In this document: positions 27,844 through 63,925 of the stretch, piece after piece | How positions within the stretch are numbered: the stretch's first letter is position 1 | Layout: every line of letters starts with the position of its first letter | NCBI GenBank assembly: GCA_000739515.1 | Contig: DF820457.1 | Coordinates: forward strand, 349,804 to 413,803 | Length of the DNA: 64,000 bases | Direction: 5' to 3' | From: Candidatus Moduliflexus flocculans | Lineage (GTDB): Bacteria; Moduliflexota; Moduliflexia; Moduliflexales; Moduliflexaceae | Program-made: the position numbers and the translations under genes | Notes under the pieces: generated by a model | Told to the model about the DNA's origin: nothing | What the model saw: the letters and a program-made list of their open reading frames with translations, nothing else | Databases searched by the model: none

Positions 27844-28065
27844 CAGGGCTGTGAAGTTCTCAAACGCGCCAACGGCGCGAATCATATTAGCCCAGGGTGA
27901 AACCCTGGGAACAGGAGGTGAGCGGAGGTCGCGCTCTGAAAGAGCGCCTCATTGAAACGCTCTTTCAGAGCGTGACCGCTGAACCGTCTTCTTCCCAGGG
28001 TTTCACCCTGGGCTAACTAATATGATCTGCCCTTTCAGGGCAAACAATAGAACGTAACAGCCCTG
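27844..28065. mobile_element. MITE-like element with imperfect 17-bp terminal inverted repeats and a 9-bp direct repeat
   Basis: CAGGGCTGTGAAGTTCT (27844) and AGAACGTAACAGCCCTG (28049-28065); CTCCCAGGA at 27834-27842 and 28066-28074. Confidence 0.7.
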
Positions 28066-55512: not shown

Positions 55513-57852
55513 TCACCTTATATACGGCGGAAGCGCAAAACGCGCGATATATTCCGCATGGGTTTTGCACTGGTAGCGTGGATGGCAGGCAGCTCGCGCA
55601 GTGGTTTTGGGAAATGCATTCGCGGCGACTCCAAGCGCTGAGGTGGTCAACGCGGATAAAATCATCAACGATTTATCCTCATAATACGAAATGGCATGAT
55701 ACGTCTTGCCGACTGCCGCCACGCGCTCTCCATTCAATGCTTTGAGGTGAAGCAATGCGTGAAATGAGGATGGATCGTCTTCAAGCAGATCGCTTGAATA
55801 AAATGGAATTGGCGCGTCAGGCGTCGGATGCCTGTCAAGCTCATCTGCTATCCAGCACTGCGCCTGCGCGATTCTGTCGCTGTTAGCGCCAAGCGCGGCG
55901 AGCGTCAAAATCGCCAGCGCGGTGGAAAGCATTTGATCAAACTCGCCGAAAGCCCCGTCGTTTTGCTGACTGGCGCAGATTTCCTGCATGAGTTTGTTTC
56001 GCAGTTCATCCGCCTGATCGTCATGGCAGAGAGCCAGAGCGAGCGCCCAATCCGCCAAATACGGATTGGCGAAATACAATCCGCTCCGCTGCTCGAATCC
56101 ATCTGCAAGATACGTCAGCGATGTGCTGGGCGGCAAGCCGTGCCGCATCCTGTGCCAGCGCACGAGGCAAGTCGTGGCATAATCGGCCTGACACCAATGG
56201 CGGACATTCGGAGTGAACAGCATGAAATCAGGGCGTTGCTCCTGCGACCAGAGTTGCGGGTAATAGCCGTTCTGACCATCATGAAACCTCTCAAGCGCTT
56301 CAACCGCCTTCATGTCGTTCAGCCCGAGCAAAATCAGGGAAGAATCGGTGGCTGTGATGACATGGCCGGTATGAAACGCCCATAAATCTCCCTGCTTGCG
56401 TGTGGTAAGCAACTCTTCCAGAGACGAAAGCACGGCGGCAAGCTCGCCGTTTTGCTCGACAATCTGCCGCAATGCATATAAGAGAAAACCTAACGGCACA
56501 AGGTCGCCGTATGGAAACGGCTTTTGCGGCGCAGGCGGAATGCACATCATTGGAATCGGCTGTTGACAAGCTTTTTGCGCCAATGTCAACAGGCGCTGGA
56601 AATATTGTTTTGGCGGCGATGACAATTCAGTGCTGCGGCTCGTATCCTGAAGAAAGCGCCTGACATGCTGCGCAGTTTCCTGGCCGGATTTCACCGCAGC
56701 GTCCATGCCATAGGGAAACTCGCGATAGAGATAATCACCGGCAAGATAAATACCTGGCGCGGCGCACAAGACATCCGCGTTCCATGTCGCGTAACTTTCG
56801 GGCGTGATGATTGTTCCGCCGCATTCCCAGCGATGCGTTTCCGCAAAAAGCTGTTCAGCCCCGGCGATATTCAGCCCGACGCGCTCCATAGCGCATTTCG
56901 TCCGCGTGATCAGCTCATCATCCGGCAATTGCCGGGTTTCCTGCGACGCCCGATTGCAATAATAGACGAGAAGGACCGTTATCCGGCTTCCTGGAAACGT
57001 CATTTTGTAGATTGTGGTCATCGGTAGTTCTGGCGTCACAACGTAGGAAAATTCCTGATCGCAGATAATATCCTTATATCCGAGCGCGACGACTGTGAAT
57101 CGGCCATAACGAATGGAATGGAGAAACTGTCGGCATGGCTCGCGCATGTCTGAAAGCAGGGCGAGCGCAACCGGCGCGGGAGTCGCCACAATCACGGCGC
57201 GAGCGTATGTCTCATGGCGTGTTCCCTGCTGCGTGAATAAGACGCACATGCCGCGTTCTGTGCTCGTAATGGACTCAACCGCTGCCTCGTATTCGACGTG
57301 CGCCTGAATTCTCTGGCAATAAGCGTCAATCAGCCCATAATTTCCATCGGGATAATGTTGCGGATGATAACGCAAAAATGCGTGAGAGTGAAATGCGGGG
57401 AGATATTCTTCGATGTCGCCGGGATGAATGACCTGAAAGAACGCATTCAGCAGGTCGCGATGCTGCTGAGGCAGCCGGGCGGGGCTGAGTTTCCCATTTC
57501 CTGCGGCAAGCATGTTCGCGAACGCCGCTGATTCCGGCGGAACGATTGCGCTCAGGCATTCGGCGACCGATTCGCCGCGATAAAGCGCTCCGTCCCAAAA
57601 TACGCCAATAGGCGCAAGTTCTTCGAATGCTAACGGCGGCGAAAAATCGCGTGGAGCGCATTCGAGATCGTAGGACAACACTGCCCCGACATCATAACAA
57701 TGCGCTCCGAATTTCTGCGTGCGGATTCTCCCGCCGGGAATGGCCTCTTGTTCTAAGATCAGCGTGTTGCGATCTCGCAAATGATACGCAGCCGATAAGC
57801 CTGCCAACCCAGCGCCAATGATGATTGTCTCGAATGTTATTCCACTAACCAT
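55513..57852 (-). CDS. FAD-dependent amine-oxidase-type oxidoreductase fused to a squalene-cyclase/prenyltransferase-like alpha-alpha domain
   Basis: IIGAGLAGLSAA, GGRIRT, LAGDY..GMDAAVKSG in the first ~400 aa; helical C-terminal part with QW-like motif SQQNDGAFG. Confidence 0.7.
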   Translation of the reverse strand: MVSGITFETIIIGAGLAGLSAAYHLRDRNTLILEQEAIPGGRIRTQKFGAHCYDVGAVLSYDLECAPRDFSPPLAFEELAPIGVFWDGALYRGESVAECLSAIVPPESAAFANMLAAGNGKLSPARLPQQHRDLLNAFFQVIHPGDIEEYLPAFHSHAFLRYHPQHYPDGNYGLIDAYCQRIQAHVEYEAAVESITSTERGMCVLFTQQGTRHETYARAVIVATPAPVALALLSDMREPCRQFLHSIRYGRFTVVALGYKDIICDQEFSYVVTPELPMTTIYKMTFPGSRITVLLVYYCNRASQETRQLPDDELITRTKCAMERVGLNIAGAEQLFAETHRWECGGTIITPESYATWNADVLCAAPGIYLAGDYLYREFPYGMDAAVKSGQETAQHVRRFLQDTSRSTELSSPPKQYFQRLLTLAQKACQQPIPMMCIPPAPQKPFPYGDLVPLGFLLYALRQIVEQNGELAAVLSSLEELLTTRKQGDLWAFHTGHVITATDSSLILLGLNDMKAVEALERFHDGQNGYYPQLWSQEQRPDFMLFTPNVRHWCQADYATTCLVRWHRMRHGLPPSTSLTYLADGFEQRSGLYFANPYLADWALALALCHDDQADELRNKLMQEICASQQNDGAFGEFDQMLSTALAILTLAALGANSDRIAQAQCWIADELDRHPTPDAPIPFYSSDLLEDDPSSFHALLHLKALNGERVAAVGKTYHAISYYEDKSLMILSALTTSALGVAANAFPKTTARAACHPRYQCKTHAEYIARFALPPYIR

Positions 57853-58943
57853 GCGCCTCCCGCATTTTTCGAAAAGATGGCATTCGCGTTTAACCCCGGA
57901 TGGCTTAACGCTAAATACGCTTTGGCTTCTTTCGCCTGTCCGGACGTAATACTCAGCTTGATGTGATGAATTTTACGCAAAAGGAATTGATAGGCAATAC
58001 CTTCGGCGGGGCGCGGCCAATCTTTCGGAAAGTGCGTCATGCCTTGAAAATCCAGGATTCCCTGATATTTTGACGGAAGGCAGAGATGCATCGCCGCAGT
58101 TGCGTCGAGGAGCGGTATCCACTGTTTGGGATCATTTTCCAGCCAATTCATATAACATTCCACGCCGATTTTTTCCGCCGGTCCGTCCGGCATCAAATTG
58201 ATGTTCATCGCAAACGATTCCAGCCCTTGCGGCAACTGCCGCAAAATATCCGCGATGTTTTCCGGGTTTCCTTGCCAGCCAACCGCGCGAAGCCAGACAG
58301 GAATTTCCTCTGCCGTCAGCGGATACACGCACACTCGCAAGCCCGGGTTGGGTCTGGAAAGCATAATTCCAATTTGAAAGATGCGCGCCTCGCCGGGAAG
58401 TTCCTTGATCAGTGCATTTAGCGCGTCTTCATGATATATTGGATTTTCTAAGGCGCTTAATGCCTCGCAAATCAGGTGGGCATCCTGTTCTTTTTGGAGC
58501 GTTTTGGCATTCGGGCCGAAAAAAATGCACGGGCGGCTCAAAATCTCATCAGCCTGCGACGGGTCATCTATTGCGGCGGTGTCGAATTCTAACCAGAGAT
58601 TTCGAATGTGCGTGGAAAATGCATGATGCGGGTTTGCCCACAACGTTGCAAATCTGCGCAGATTCTTCCAGGCAGGCCATTGCGCGCATAAGGCATCTAA
58701 GGTTGAGGGCATCTCCCCGGCGAGGATATTCCGCCCCTGAGATTGACGTTTGATTTCAAAAAGAATATCCATTTTTGCGCTCGCTTCGCCGAGGCGGCAT
58801 TCAAAGCCCCAGAACGTCGCTAACTCAAACGGCAAACGCTCTGCCGCGAGCGCTAACAACGCATACCCTTCCGCGTCAACCAGGCTGTCAGGGAGCGAAG
58901 CTTTCGCCAATTCCAGCACAGAGAGCAGATTGGTCGTGATCAC
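57837..58943 (-). CDS. Putative ABBA-fold aromatic (Trp) prenyltransferase
   Basis: FECRLG, WLEFD, QIGIMLSR, KIGVECY, HHIKL..AKAYL: repeating beta-strand pattern with Arg/Lys/Tyr residues; GTG start overlaps the epimerase stop; fold assignment is inference. Confidence 0.55.
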   Translation of the reverse strand: MITTNLLSVLELAKASLPDSLVDAEGYALLALAAERLPFELATFWGFECRLGEASAKMDILFEIKRQSQGRNILAGEMPSTLDALCAQWPAWKNLRRFATLWANPHHAFSTHIRNLWLEFDTAAIDDPSQADEILSRPCIFFGPNAKTLQKEQDAHLICEALSALENPIYHEDALNALIKELPGEARIFQIGIMLSRPNPGLRVCVYPLTAEEIPVWLRAVGWQGNPENIADILRQLPQGLESFAMNINLMPDGPAEKIGVECYMNWLENDPKQWIPLLDATAAMHLCLPSKYQGILDFQGMTHFPKDWPRPAEGIAYQFLLRKIHHIKLSITSGQAKEAKAYLALSHPGLNANAIFSKNAGGAWLVE

Positions 58944-60436
58944 TGATACACCTCATCCAGCAGCCCATGATCGAATAAACTTTTTACCATCGCGACAACA
59001 GTGATCAAATTGAATTGGTTTGCGACCATTTCCTCTGTGAGCTCTTTATACGTGAATGCCTGTCTGGAAATTGCGTCGCCTAAGAACCGATGCGGCGCTT
59101 TTCCGCGAAAATGATGCACCTGATTCGGCGAGACTAAATCAAATCCCTCGTCTGTCGGGCGATAACGTAAATCGTCGCGGAAGCGCATCGGCATGTCGGC
59201 GCGTGGGGATTCCGGCATATTTCGGTCAATCAAGGATTCGATGGCCTTGCGGAAATCGGCGGCGTCAGTGAAGGAGGCGTTATCAAACACGCGATAACCG
59301 TAGGGCCATTTCGAACTGGAATAGCAGGGGCTGATCAATTGAATCGTCCGCGTGACGAAACTGACCATAAAACCGGACATGCACTCAATTGTCCCTTGCG
59401 GCACGACGCCGTTAAGATATTCTCCGTCCTCCTTGCCGCGCAAGCCGTCTTCCTCTTTCAACACGCGTCCGCTGGACACTTTCGGGCGCACATGCTCTTT
59501 CATCTGCATCAGCAAGTCCACGTCCAGCAGTTCTTCTGGGGAATATAATTCATGAATTTTGAACAGCGCCGCCTTTGAGAGAACGCTGATTCGTAAGGAG
59601 GCGGGAAACTTTCTTTCTTTGTAAAATGCGATCAATTGCCGCAGCCATGGCGCGTCCGTGCCGACTGCGGTGGAGGTAAATGGCGCAGCCCCGCAGATGT
59701 CGGTATAATCCCGCAGAAATTCAAAATAATGCGGATTATCATGCGGCTCTGTGCCGCAGTAGAGCATGGTTCTGCCGGTCTGCTCCGCGCCAAAAATATC
59801 TACGCACGCCTCAACAATAGAACGAAAAAACTCCTTGTGAATCGCATAATCGAGGTTATCGGTCAACTTCCGCGCCGCGAACGCGCAAAACCAACACCCC
59901 ACGCTGCATCCGTCGCTCAATTCAAATGATAGCACCGGATGGCTAATGTGATAGCCATAAATGCCTAATTCGCTGCGCGCGGAATGAACGCGGCGCTTGC
60001 GCCAGGCATCGAACGCGGGATTCGTTTCCACCGGCAGAACGCGATTCCGCAGCATGGCGTAGAGTTCCTCTTTCAGGGTGAGAAACCGCGCCCATAAATG
60101 GAATAAGGGATAGGCTGCGATGTCTTCAAGAATATTGGCAGGTAGTTCCTGCGTTTTCTTTGTGCGCACCGCTCTCATGAATTGCTGAACGCTCTCCGGC
60201 GATTTCCAGAGAATCGCGAGTTCATCGGGAGCGAAAGAAATGCCGATGCGCCGCAAGCGCTCACGCGCCTCCGGTCGGAACGTTCCTGCGTCAACCTCTC
60301 GGCAAAACTCGGGATCGCCTTCTGTCCATTCAAAGAACCGCTTGATCTGGGCTATCGTGGCGAGTTCTTGCTCGGAAAACGTCCCGAATAATTCTACGAC
60401 GTTGTGGCATGAATTCGAGGGTTGAGGATTCAGCAT
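58940..60436 (-). CDS. Radical SAM RiPP amino-acid epimerase (PoyD/OspD family)
   Basis: HPVLSFELSDGCSVGCWFCAF, TEPHDNPHY, GTIECMSGF, SPCYSSSKWPYGYR. Confidence 0.88.
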   Translation of the reverse strand: MLNPQPSNSCHNVVELFGTFSEQELATIAQIKRFFEWTEGDPEFCREVDAGTFRPEARERLRRIGISFAPDELAILWKSPESVQQFMRAVRTKKTQELPANILEDIAAYPLFHLWARFLTLKEELYAMLRNRVLPVETNPAFDAWRKRRVHSARSELGIYGYHISHPVLSFELSDGCSVGCWFCAFAARKLTDNLDYAIHKEFFRSIVEACVDIFGAEQTGRTMLYCGTEPHDNPHYFEFLRDYTDICGAAPFTSTAVGTDAPWLRQLIAFYKERKFPASLRISVLSKAALFKIHELYSPEELLDVDLLMQMKEHVRPKVSSGRVLKEEDGLRGKEDGEYLNGVVPQGTIECMSGFMVSFVTRTIQLISPCYSSSKWPYGYRVFDNASFTDAADFRKAIESLIDRNMPESPRADMPMRFRDDLRYRPTDEGFDLVSPNQVHHFRGKAPHRFLGDAISRQAFTYKELTEEMVANQFNLITVVAMVKSLFDHGLLDEVYQ

Positions 60437-61995
60437 TCACTCGTCGAACTGACGCCTGAGTGAGCATTGACCTCATTCAAGAATCCGTTATCAAATAAAT
60501 TTTTCAGCGCCACCACAACAATCATCGGGTTGCAGCCATGCTGTTTCGTCATAATGTCATACAACTCGTCATAGCTGTGCGTGCCTTCAGCGAGCAAGTT
60601 TCCTAACGGCTTGTGCAATGCGGCGTTGCGAAAATGGTGAATCTGATTCGGCGAGGCGAGTTCAAATCCGGATTCTGTCGGACGATAGATGAAATCATCG
60701 CGAAATTGCATCAACATGTCTTTGGGCGGATTTTCAGGCATATTCCGATCAATCAGCGCTTGCATCACGCGATGAAAATCTTCTGCGTCAGCAAAGGTGG
60801 CCTCATCGAAGACGCGATAGCCATAAGGCCATTTTTGCGAGGTATAACACGGGCTGACGATCTGGATTGTTCGCCTGACCATGTTGATTAAAAAGCCAGA
60901 GACACAGGCAATTGAGCCTTGAGGCACGATCTCGTCAAGATAATGCCCCTGTTCGCGTTCGCGCAATCCGGCCTCTTCTTTCAAAATGCGTCCGCCCGAC
61001 ACTTTTTGGCGCGGGCCGTGCTTAATTTGCATCAAAAGTTCGACGTCCCGAAGCTCTTCTGGCGAATAAAGATCGTGAATTTGATGCAGCATGGCTTTGG
61101 ACAGGACGCTCAACCTCGGCCAGGGAGAATTCGATTGCCGATAGAACGCGATCAGTTCGCGCATCCAGACCGGATCGGTTGGCACTGCTGTTGATGTGCA
61201 TACCGGAAATCCGGTAATTTCGGTATAATCTTTAACAAAGTCCAGATAATGCGGATTATCGTGCGGCTCCGTGCCATAATAGAGCAATGCCAGACTCGTT
61301 TCATATCTGCCGAACAGATCGACGCAGGCATACGTCACTTGCCGGAAAAAGTCGCGATGTTCTGTATAATCGAAATTTTGCGTCAATTTGTGTGTGGCAA
61401 ACGCGCAGAACCAACAGCCAACGCTGCATCCATCCCCCAATTCGAAGGCTAAAATCGGATGATCGAGCATATAACTGAAATAGCCTAATTCGCTTTTGGT
61501 CGCGGCAATTCGACGGAGACGCCAGGCGTCGAATTTGGGATTGGCCGGGATGCGAATCACTTTTTCCGCAATATTGCCCATATAGTTCCTGAATAAGCGA
61601 TTTTTGGCCGAAAGATACCGCCCCCATAAAACGAATAATGGATACTCCGCAATTTTCTGCATTATCTCTTCTGGTAAGGCTTCTTCATGACGTGCCTGAC
61701 AATTCAGGACAAAACGCTGCGCGGCTTCGGGATATTTCCAGAGGATGGCGACTTCATCGAGATTGAAGGTTATGCCGATGCGCTGCAAACGCTCCACTGT
61801 GGCGGGAGACATATTGCCGGAAGTCAATTGTTTTTCGAAGGCCGGATCGCCCTGCGCCCATTCAAACAGCCGTTTTAATTGGACGATCAAGGACATTTCG
61901 TCTGCTGAAAATTGGCGCAACAGTCTTGCATGAAAATCTTCGCAATTTTCAGTACTTTCAGGGATATTTGATGCTGCCTGTTGATGATTGCTCAT
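60430..61995 (-). CDS. Radical SAM RiPP amino-acid epimerase (PoyD/OspD family), second copy
   Basis: HPILAFELGDGCSVGCWFCAF, TEPHDNPHY, GSIACVSGF, SPCYTSQKWPYGYR. Confidence 0.88.
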   Translation of the reverse strand: MSNHQQAASNIPESTENCEDFHARLLRQFSADEMSLIVQLKRLFEWAQGDPAFEKQLTSGNMSPATVERLQRIGITFNLDEVAILWKYPEAAQRFVLNCQARHEEALPEEIMQKIAEYPLFVLWGRYLSAKNRLFRNYMGNIAEKVIRIPANPKFDAWRLRRIAATKSELGYFSYMLDHPILAFELGDGCSVGCWFCAFATHKLTQNFDYTEHRDFFRQVTYACVDLFGRYETSLALLYYGTEPHDNPHYLDFVKDYTEITGFPVCTSTAVPTDPVWMRELIAFYRQSNSPWPRLSVLSKAMLHQIHDLYSPEELRDVELLMQIKHGPRQKVSGGRILKEEAGLREREQGHYLDEIVPQGSIACVSGFLINMVRRTIQIVSPCYTSQKWPYGYRVFDEATFADAEDFHRVMQALIDRNMPENPPKDMLMQFRDDFIYRPTESGFELASPNQIHHFRNAALHKPLGNLLAEGTHSYDELYDIMTKQHGCNPMIVVVALKNLFDNGFLNEVNAHSGVSSTSEC

Positions 61996-62186: not shown

Positions 62187-62503
62187 TTACCAGGCTCTAC
62201 CCAGGACAGCGCCGCTGACGACGACGGAGCCACCGACGGCGCCGACAGCACCAGCAATAGCCATTGTCACAGTGACGACTCCACCAGCCACCTGCTCTAA
62301 TTCCTCGTCACTCAATTCATTCGTCGGCCTGATTTCGTCGGCCAACGCTTGAATATCGCGTTATCGAATTCAAGGCCAAGTTCGTTTTTACTATACGCGA
62401 TCCAGCCATCAACATTTTCGATGCCGATCGCTTTGACTCGTTCTCTGATTTTTTCATCTTCCGCACAGAGTTGCCCAAATTTTTTGAAATTTTCTACGCT
62501 CAT
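62187..62503 (-). pseudogene. Nif11-like RiPP precursor D with a 1-bp deletion; restored core VVTVTMAIAGAVGAVGGSVVVSGAVLGRAW
   Basis: GATAACGC at ~62361 versus GATAAACGC in precursor C; 317 nt, and adding one A restores a 75-aa leader plus 30-aa core ending in TAA at 62187-62189. Confidence 0.85.
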
Positions 62504-62561: not shown

Positions 62562-62927
62562 TTACCAGCCTCTACCGACGGCAACGCCAACGAGGCTGCC
62601 GGCGGCGGCACCAGCGACGCCGCCGCCGACGATGCCGACGACGCCTGCGGCGACGATGGCGCCGCCGACGGCGCCAACAATAGCCATTGTCGCAGTGACG
62701 ACTCCGCCCGCCACCTGCTCTAATTCCTCGTCACTCAATTCATCCGTCGGCCTGATTTCGTCGGCCAACGCTTGAATATCGCGTTTATCGAATTCCAGGC
62801 CAAGTTCGTTCTTACTATACGCGATCCAGCCATCAACATTTTCGATGCCGATCTCTTTGACTTTTTCTCTCACGTTAACATCTTCAGCGCAAATCTGCCC
62901 GAATTTTTTAAAATTTTCTACGCTCAT
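62562..62927 (-). CDS. Nif11-like RiPP precursor C; core VVTATMAIVGAVGGAIVAAGVVGIVGGGVAGAAAGSLVGVAVGRGW
   Basis: 75-aa leader MSVENFKKF...ELSDEELEQVAGG (double-Gly site) plus 46-aa core. Confidence 0.92.
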   Translation of the reverse strand: MSVENFKKFGQICAEDVNVREKVKEIGIENVDGWIAYSKNELGLEFDKRDIQALADEIRPTDELSDEELEQVAGGVVTATMAIVGAVGGAIVAAGVVGIVGGGVAGAAAGSLVGVAVGRGW

Positions 62928-63053: not shown

Positions 63054-63413
63054 TTACCATCTTCTGATAGCTCTCACAACTGCAATCGCGGCGCCAGCAA
63101 CAGCCCCCAAGGCTGCGGCTCCACCGGCAGCAGCTCCGGCAAGAGCAATCATCCCGGCAACAGCGGCGCCGGCGGTTGCCGTGATGAAGCCTCCGGCCAC
63201 CTGCTCCAATTGCTCTTCGCTCAATTCATTCTCTGGGCTGACTTCAGCGGCCAAGGTCTCGATGTCCTCTTTACTGAATTCCAGGCCGAGTTCATCCTTG
63301 CTATAGGCGATCCAACTGTCAATATTTTCGATGCCGATCTCTTTGACTTTTTCTCGGATTGCGGGATCTTCTGCACAAAGCTGTCCGAATTTTTTGAAAT
63401 TCTCAACGCTCAT
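63054..63413 (-). CDS. Nif11-like RiPP precursor B; core FITATAGAAVAGMIALAGAAAGGAAALGAVAGAAIAVVRAIRRW
   Basis: 75-aa leader ending ELSEEQLEQVAGG plus 44-aa core; AAAGGA RBS. Confidence 0.92.
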   Translation of the reverse strand: MSVENFKKFGQLCAEDPAIREKVKEIGIENIDSWIAYSKDELGLEFSKEDIETLAAEVSPENELSEEQLEQVAGGFITATAGAAVAGMIALAGAAAGGAAALGAVAGAAIAVVRAIRRW

Positions 63414-63586: not shown

Positions 63587-63925
63587 TTACCATCTCTTAA
63601 TGGCAGAACCAACCGACGCGACAACTCTGGCAGCGCCAGCGGCGATTGACACTCCACCAGCAATTACTCTGATGACGGAGGCAGCGGTTGACGTGACGAA
63701 TCCGCCAGCGACTTGTTCTAATTGTTCTTCGCTCAATTCATCGACCGGCCCAACTTCGTTGGCCAGAGTCTGCATGTCTTCTTTCGTGAATTCTAAGCCG
63801 AGTTCGTCCTTGCTATAGGCAATCCAGCCATCAATGTTTTCCACGCCGATTGCTTTGACTTTTTCTCGGATTGTGGGGTCTTCTGCGCAAAGCTGTCCGA
63901 ATTTTTTGAAATTCTCAACGCTCAT
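63587..63925 (-). CDS. Nif11-like RiPP precursor A; core FVTSTAASVIRVIAGGVSIAAGAARVVASVGSAIKRW
   Basis: 75-aa leader ending ELSEEQLEQVAGG plus 37-aa core; AAAGGAG RBS. Confidence 0.92.
   Translation of the reverse strand: MSVENFKKFGQLCAEDPTIREKVKAIGVENIDGWIAYSKDELGLEFTKEDMQTLANEVGPVDELSEEQLEQVAGGFVTSTAASVIRVIAGGVSIAAGAARVVASVGSAIKRW

Follow-up and report, generated by a model that had tools for sequence, protein, structure and literature searches.

The stretch of DNA analyzed here (the window) comprises 64,000 nucleotides of contig DF820457.1 of Candidatus Moduliflexus flocculans (assembly GCA_000739515.1, positions 349,804 to 413,803), and it carries on its minus strand two adjacent genes for PoyD-family radical SAM peptide epimerases, which belong to a biosynthetic cluster for peptides synthesized by the ribosome and modified after translation (RiPPs). 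The upstream gene (60430..61995, minus strand) encodes EpiA, of 521 amino acids (aa), and the downstream gene (58940..60436, minus strand) encodes EpiB, of 498 aa and of a derived subtype. Both proteins match TIGR04517, the NCBIfam model rSAM_PoyD (“radical SAM family RiPP maturation amino acid epimerase”), well above its curated cut-off of 325 bits, with scores of 384.5 bits for EpiA (E 7e-115, model positions 3-445 of 446) and 377 bits for EpiB (E 1.3e-112, model positions 1-446); Pfam gave a weak Radical_SAM signal only. The BLASTP alignment of the two spans 499 residues, of which 53% are identical and 71% positive. Their paired motifs are FELGDGCSVGCWFC and FELSDGCSVGCWFC, and GSIACVSGF and GTIECMSGF, respectively, with TEPHDNPHY common to both. 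An earlier note on this DNA had described two colinear paralogs with such motifs and a 7-nt overlap, and the open reading frames (ORFs), the TIGR04517 scores, the BLASTP alignment and a direct reading of the overlap (ATGCTGA) all agree with that description. Judged by these matches, EpiA and EpiB are members of a known peptide-epimerase family, whose enzymes turn L-residues of ribosomal peptides into D-residues. No other PoyD-family gene was found in the 7.1-Mb, 8-contig genome, and the two-gene observation is far beyond chance. In place of the single-epimerase architecture of characterized proteusin pathways, the locus thus has two intact epimerase genes.

The radical SAM [4Fe-4S] motif CxxxCxxC is present in both copies (as DGCSVGCWFC; the ligands in EpiA are C190, C194 and C197), and its three cysteines are invariant in 16 of 16 and in 97 of 97 aligned sequences. 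The column that holds C364 of EpiA and C352 of EpiB is Cys in 146 of 146 family members, and the other near-invariant Cys, C383, is missing from one member. In PoyD, Cys372 is the single strictly conserved Cys and the proposed hydrogen-atom donor (PMC8326336); the C364/C352 column would correspond to this residue, PoyD itself lying outside the alignment. Ratios of non-synonymous to synonymous substitution (dN/dS) were 0.07-0.09 for EpiA and 0.08-0.12 for EpiB in unsaturated comparisons, indicative of purifying selection on both. The possibility, raised in the earlier note, that one copy is inactive therefore finds no support, as the catalytic residues are complete and selection is purifying in both copies. 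With residues and selection in this state, both look functional as epimerases, epimerization being their predicted activity.

The AlphaFold model of EpiB (predicted local distance difference test, pLDDT, 91.3) has three parts: an N-terminal helical domain, a partial barrel and, at the C-terminus, a unit built from three strands and three helices. In a fold search, ~86 residues of this model matched RRE domains with template modeling (TM) scores of 0.62-0.64, and otherwise only distant radical SAM folds were returned; from its fold, the C-terminal unit is the part to which we assign the RRE-like match. The corresponding C-terminal region aligns in both EpiA and EpiB. A sequence search of the PDB with EpiA found no solved relative.

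The stop codon of the EpiB gene is overlapped by 4 nt (GTGA) by a further gene (57837..58943, minus strand), for whose 368-aa product no Pfam or NCBIfam match was found. The model of this protein (pLDDT 90.4) is an ABBA barrel, and Foldseek returned 5-DMATS, TleC, PriB, CymD and LimF at probability 1.00 and TM ~0.5; over the matched indole and cyanobactin prenyltransferases, PagF included, the probabilities were 0.97-1.00 and the TM scores 0.4-0.55. On the strength of the model, the protein has the ABBA aromatic prenyltransferase fold, and prenyltransferase activity is predicted. The junction between the EpiB gene and this gene is an overlap of 4-8 nt in all seven clusters seen, and the junction between the EpiA and EpiB genes ranges from a 7-nt overlap to a 26-nt gap. 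Across many phyla, a homolog of the prenyltransferase-fold gene adjoins the epimerase gene in ~25 of 37 species-representative loci (for example, L011 11463-12626 and L030 8751-9926). Moreover, cores end in Trp in 22 of 23 loci with the prenyltransferase-fold gene, and in other residues in 8 of 8 complete loci that lack it. This widespread adjacency and the tracking of Trp indicate that the epimerase and the prenyltransferase-fold gene form an old two-gene module.

Directly upstream of the epimerase genes lie eight genes for precursors with Nif11 leaders and a GG cleavage motif, whereas four had been counted previously; the remaining four lie beyond the window end. In precursor 1 (62187..62503, minus strand; core VVTVTMAIAGAVGAVGGSVVVSGAVLGRAW), the Nif11 leader and the core are in different reading frames, the leader hidden Markov model matching two ORFs in different frames, and the ortholog in cluster L008 is intact; the frame split reflects recent inactivation or else an error in sequencing. 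Precursor 2 (62562..62927), precursor 3 (63054..63413) and precursor 4 (63587..63925), all on the minus strand and each with a Nif11 leader, have cores that end in GRGW, RRW and KRW, respectively. Precursors 5-8 occupy positions 858-2766 of locus L010 (= G000:C6:413857-415765), and FVTSTAAAVVGAVAGGVSAAAGVASAIVAVGRAIKRW is the core of one Nif11 precursor. The cores are 30-46 residues long, all end in Trp and consist of 31% Ala, 22% Val and 17% Gly (70% together). Gly positions counted from the core C-terminus showed no bias that would hint at two registers.

The cluster is headed by a gene for a 469-aa beta-lactamase-family protein (L010 2925-4334), and related clusters keep this gene in the same leading position. 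Along the minus strand, the precursors are followed by EpiA, EpiB, the 368-aa gene, an amine-oxidase fusion, a B12-radical SAM protein, a peptide arginase, a second B12-radical SAM protein and a YcaO protein. The C-terminal part of the amine-oxidase fusion has a separate homolog in a relative, which matches the squalene-hopene-cyclase family (PF13243). The peptide arginase scores 256 bits against NF052474, below the 350-bit cut-off, and also matches PF12640, and two proteins of the cluster have B12-binding plus radical SAM domains. With Nif11 leaders, epimerases and genes resembling B12-radical SAM C-methyltransferases, the cluster has the gene content of a poy/aer-like cluster, as seen for hypermodified peptides of the proteusin type. 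In the Vecturithrix cluster, a very hydrophobic ORF of 61 aa stands directly after the YcaO gene (L055 13706-13891) and may encode a membrane or immunity protein.

Both epimerases and a homolog of the 368-aa protein occur as a unit in further metagenomic clusters, namely L005/L006 (Candidatus Vecturithrix), L008/L009, L048, L049 and L054; a sixth related cluster, L051, has the downstream-type epimerase only. In a careful maximum-likelihood tree of 69 family members, the downstream copies (type B) formed one clade with support of 100/99, and the upstream copies (type A) formed one clade with support of 93/58, and every bootstrap tree recovered the upstream copies as monophyletic. Within the A and B clades, the branching is mirrored across the lineages of the window, L008, L048, L005, L049 and L054, which points to one duplication or one recruitment followed by co-divergence. 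By this branching, EpiA and EpiB are an old co-inherited pair and not a recent duplicate, the second copy having possibly arisen by local tandem duplication or been recruited from elsewhere. Among 5.8 billion proteins clustered at 90% identity, there are 7 A-type clusters (8 once the A of the window itself, absent from the results of the A query, is counted) and 8 B-type clusters; the system is thus rare, and both types are equally numerous. The best-named homologs are from Candidatus Vecturithrix or candidate division KSB3. Eight genomes from the same order, including three from the same genus, yielded no PoyD-family gene, which indicates that the cluster is accessory. In L051, an internally deleted epimerase remnant (positions 3-176), in which residues ~25-51 are joined to ~422-454, stands directly upstream of the B-type gene; the upstream copy appears to have been lost in this lineage, although the remnant lies at the contig end and may be an assembly artifact.

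Such co-inheritance would also be expected of an EpiA-EpiB heteromer, obligate or facultative and possibly including the prenyltransferase-fold protein, an arrangement for which the overlapping or nearly abutting genes, the mirrored phylogenies, the near-even count of 90% clusters of the two types (8 A-type and 8 B-type) and the constant translational coupling of EpiB to the next gene can all be cited. However, PoyD is active alone in vitro (PMC8326336), most family members are single genes (33 of the 37 loci), and the full catalytic set and the RRE-like domain are kept in both copies, neither of which is decaying to a scaffold; L051, moreover, retains only B beside the deleted A remnant. We consider a heteromer rather unlikely on this balance.

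The two copies have diverged asymmetrically. EpiB evolves ~1.9 times faster than EpiA: along the path from the window to Vecturithrix (L005), the distance is 0.93 for EpiB versus 0.50 for EpiA, and the amino-acid identity is 63% versus 72%. Columns that are at least 85% conserved in the 128 other family members were examined for changes in either clade, and six were found changed, all in B only: A183S, C266F, P291A, G334S, A363E and V365M (A numbering). In addition, Y240C (position 227 in EpiB) is present in 9 of 9 B members and in 0 of 137 others. EpiA thus retains the canonical active-site motifs LAFEL, LLYYGTEP, VCTSTAV and SIACVSGF, and the EpiB subtype is marked by S170, M224, C227, F253, S322 and E351-C352-M353. 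The A363E and V365M replacements, in the loop that bears the donor Cys, flank this Cys directly, turning SIACVSGF into (S/T)IECMSGF, and C266, which is replaced by Phe in B on strand 3, is a Cys with 95% conservation. The remaining B-specific positions lie, in the pLDDT-91 model, on core strands 1-3 of the barrel or just before GTEP, and from the general architecture of radical SAM enzymes the B-specific positions would line the SAM/substrate cavity. EpiA keeps the family consensus, and the active site of EpiB is remodeled. In the clusters with both types, B, which holds the position of the old module, is the copy that diverged, and the added upstream A stayed canonical.

Fixed, B-only changes at conserved active-site positions, including the neighbors of the donor Cys and the loss of C266, together with the faster evolution of B, would be in keeping with an EpiB that has left epimerization and applies the same C-alpha radical chemistry to another outcome or to a non-backbone position. 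Yet the donor Cys and the ligands of the SAM cluster are intact in EpiB, its score exceeds the equivalog-like cut-off of the epimerase family, and similar substitutions occur in sole-copy members, which must supply the epimerase function of their clusters. Both the Glu beside the Cys and the loss of C266 are found in such sole-copy epimerases (L046, L041/42), and they are compatible with catalysis because these members also have them. A change of reaction in EpiB is therefore, in our judgment, very unlikely. The same divergence bears on simple redundancy, in which both copies would do the same job and the second would raise throughput for a large array. Eight precursors with cores of 30-46 residues would indeed need many epimerizations; nevertheless, 47% divergence, clade-specific fixed differences in the active site and purifying selection through several speciation events are not expected of redundant copies, and the pair is retained in Vecturithrix, where the precursor is single, which makes a mere dosage effect highly improbable.

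Another explanation is that each epimerase serves a subset of the precursors. The window genome has several core subtypes, with starts of VVT.. or F.T.. and ends of GR(A/G)W or (R/K)RW, and in an independent pair from Leptospirales the two epimerases go with two precursors; both observations would suit such a division. However, the leaders in the array are near-identical, and Vecturithrix has both epimerases and a single precursor on a fully read 29.5-kb contig. Furthermore, one epimerase serves 6 precursors in L050 and 17-19 in L027. The form of this idea proposed in the earlier note, a split by precursor pair (A/B versus C/D), is not supported on the same counts, the window genome having eight precursors and not two pairs, and we give little credence to a division by precursor in general.

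We favor instead a non-redundant specialization of EpiA and EpiB by site or by stage on the same precursors, to which we assign a probability of about 0.55; such a split could run by core region, by register or by residue type. Under this proposal, EpiA, EpiB and the prenyltransferase-fold gene would be an inherited unit for long Gly/Ala/Val-rich Nif11 peptides that end in Trp, and the two epimerases, each with its own C-terminal RRE-like domain, would act on the same leader-bound precursors. EpiA probably installs the bulk of the D-Ala and D-Val in the hydrophobic stretch, like PoyD, AerD and EreD, because it has kept the family-consensus active site. EpiB probably acts on a distinct subset of residues or at a later biosynthetic stage, because its pocket is remodeled and it is always coupled translationally to the prenyltransferase-fold gene; candidate targets would be residues out of reach of the canonical enzyme or not accepted by it, for example those near the conserved basic-Trp C-terminus, or residues that other maturases have already altered. 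More tentatively, and with a confidence that is clearly below even, EpiB-type enzymes (S170, C227, F253, E351-C-M353) may be a neofunctionalized subfamily with a site selectivity unlike that of the characterized PoyD-types, which would act in concert with a Trp prenyltransferase and, together with EpiA, write a D-pattern beyond that of one core-directed epimerase.

Several observations weigh against site or stage specialization. Cluster L050 has the same accessory genes and manages with one canonical epimerase for 6 precursors, and L051 has a B-type gene alone beside the remnant of the upstream copy, so a cluster can dispense with the pair. The A and B clades and the single-copy relatives form a backbone polytomy, and the approximately unbiased test of A plus B as one clade gave p = 0.18, which does not reject this grouping. 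In addition, core length, composition and Gly parity separate no two-epimerase clusters from one-epimerase clusters, and sequence alone gives no site assignment for EpiA or EpiB.

Two epimerases are present in 4 of the 37 species-representative loci, namely those of a Leptospirales metagenome-assembled genome (MAG; L013), a Defluviitaleaceae MAG (L028), Catenovulum sediminis D2 (L030) and Verrucomicrobia SCGC AAA164-E04 (L047), and two further family members, P0050 and P0051, lie on one contig. In the trees, the partners of the L013, L047 and P0050/51 pairs are each other's sisters, and the L028 pair falls into two sister subclades, each with one member of the P0100/P0120 pair. These sister positions indicate duplications independent of the A/B pair, and two-epimerase loci had at least four further independent origins. 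Convergence of such pairs on a B-type active site was considered and rejected, as both copies are canonical at the B-signature positions in the L013, P0050/51 and L028 pairs. In every pair, divergence is greatest in the N-terminal helical domain (in L013, 59% identity versus 78-87% in the remaining domains); this domain likewise evolves fastest among orthologs, and its divergence within pairs is only suggestive. Two more distant PoyD-family proteins, P0124 and P0133, appear to share a 7400-bp contig and may be a further two-epimerase locus.

Some of these loci are of interest in themselves. In the cultured gammaproteobacterium Catenovulum sediminis D2 (L030 7157-11497), the prenyltransferase-fold gene stands between the two epimerase genes, and this organism is a possible tractable native system. 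The Defluviitaleaceae locus (L028 7533-12973) has 6-12 Nif11-type precursors with products of ~190 aa beside its two epimerases, and a Deferribacterales MAG (L027) has 17-19 Nif11-type precursors, likewise with ~190-aa products, and one epimerase; both loci lack the prenyltransferase-fold gene and the terminal Trp. Elsewhere in the window, positions 27865-27909 (minus strand) match the Rfam small RNA family Acido-Lenti-1 (RF01687) with 37.1 bits against a gathering score of 37.

The statement of the earlier note that characterized pathways use one epimerase is supported by the pathways compared here, those of PoyD, GanD and EreD. The note had not remarked on the asymmetry of the two copies, on the strict coupling of EpiB to the prenyltransferase-fold gene or on the two-epimerase loci of other phyla. 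PoyD is one epimerase that performs 18 epimerizations (PMC8326336), and the gan pathway has the single epimerase GanD, for which AerD and PoyD were used as surrogates; according to published work, the D-pattern is largely dictated by the core. The present cluster resembles the PoyD and AerD systems in its CxxxCxxC motif and conserved donor Cys, its TIGR04517 matches, its long Gly/Ala/Val-rich cores and its B12-radical SAM enzymes. It differs from the poy, aer and gan clusters, which have one epimerase each and NHLP-type leaders, in that its two epimerases have diverged, its leaders are of the Nif11 type, its cores end in Trp, and it also encodes a prenyltransferase-fold protein, a peptide arginase, a YcaO protein and an amine-oxidase/cyclase-like fusion. 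EreD, the single radical SAM epimerase of the pythonamide pathway of Candidatus Eudoremicrobium, converts Val and Ala residues at seven positions in a Val/Ala-rich core 46 residues long (PMC9259500), and its substrate is the closest characterized type to the cores of the window. EreD demonstrates that a core of this kind can be served by one enzyme, and what stands out here is the retention of a second copy with a diverged active site.

The cyanobacterial PoyD homologs OspD (landornamide), AvpD and PlpD install a few D-residues in ribosomal peptides (PMC8326336), and the gene for OspD adjoins that for the peptide arginase OspR (PMC10028609). A peptide arginase (below the NCBIfam cut-off) is likewise found in the window cluster, the comparison with OspD, AvpD and PlpD being by description. 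To our knowledge, each of these three is the sole epimerase of its own cluster. EpeE/YydG is also a radical SAM peptide epimerase with a Cys hydrogen-atom donor (PMC8326336), but it belongs to another family; its structural similarity to the EpiB model is weak (Foldseek E 0.06, TM 0.27-0.38), and the sequence search of the PDB gave no match. Full-text searches of the literature yielded no account of a RiPP pathway with two epimerases, an absence that is not proof for the whole field. The novelty lies in the conserved pairing of A with B and in B as a derived subtype, the family itself being already known.

Radical SAM epimerases are tools for placing D-amino acids in gene-encoded peptides, and their regioselectivity is thought to be largely set by the core. 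A canonical copy and a copy changed around the hydrogen-donor Cys, working with the same leader, would offer a natural experiment on the enzyme-side determinants of site choice, and the B signature defines a small, recognizable subfamily. As two-epimerase clusters have evolved repeatedly, the arrangement is probably adaptive, and if EpiB-type enzymes are indeed a neofunctionalized subfamily, these repeated origins would point to a general limit on what a single radical SAM epimerase can install. In a wider context, the cluster belongs to a large uncharacterized natural-product family, distributed over many phyla, in which an epimerase and an ABBA-fold prenyltransferase are associated with Trp-terminated Nif11 peptides.

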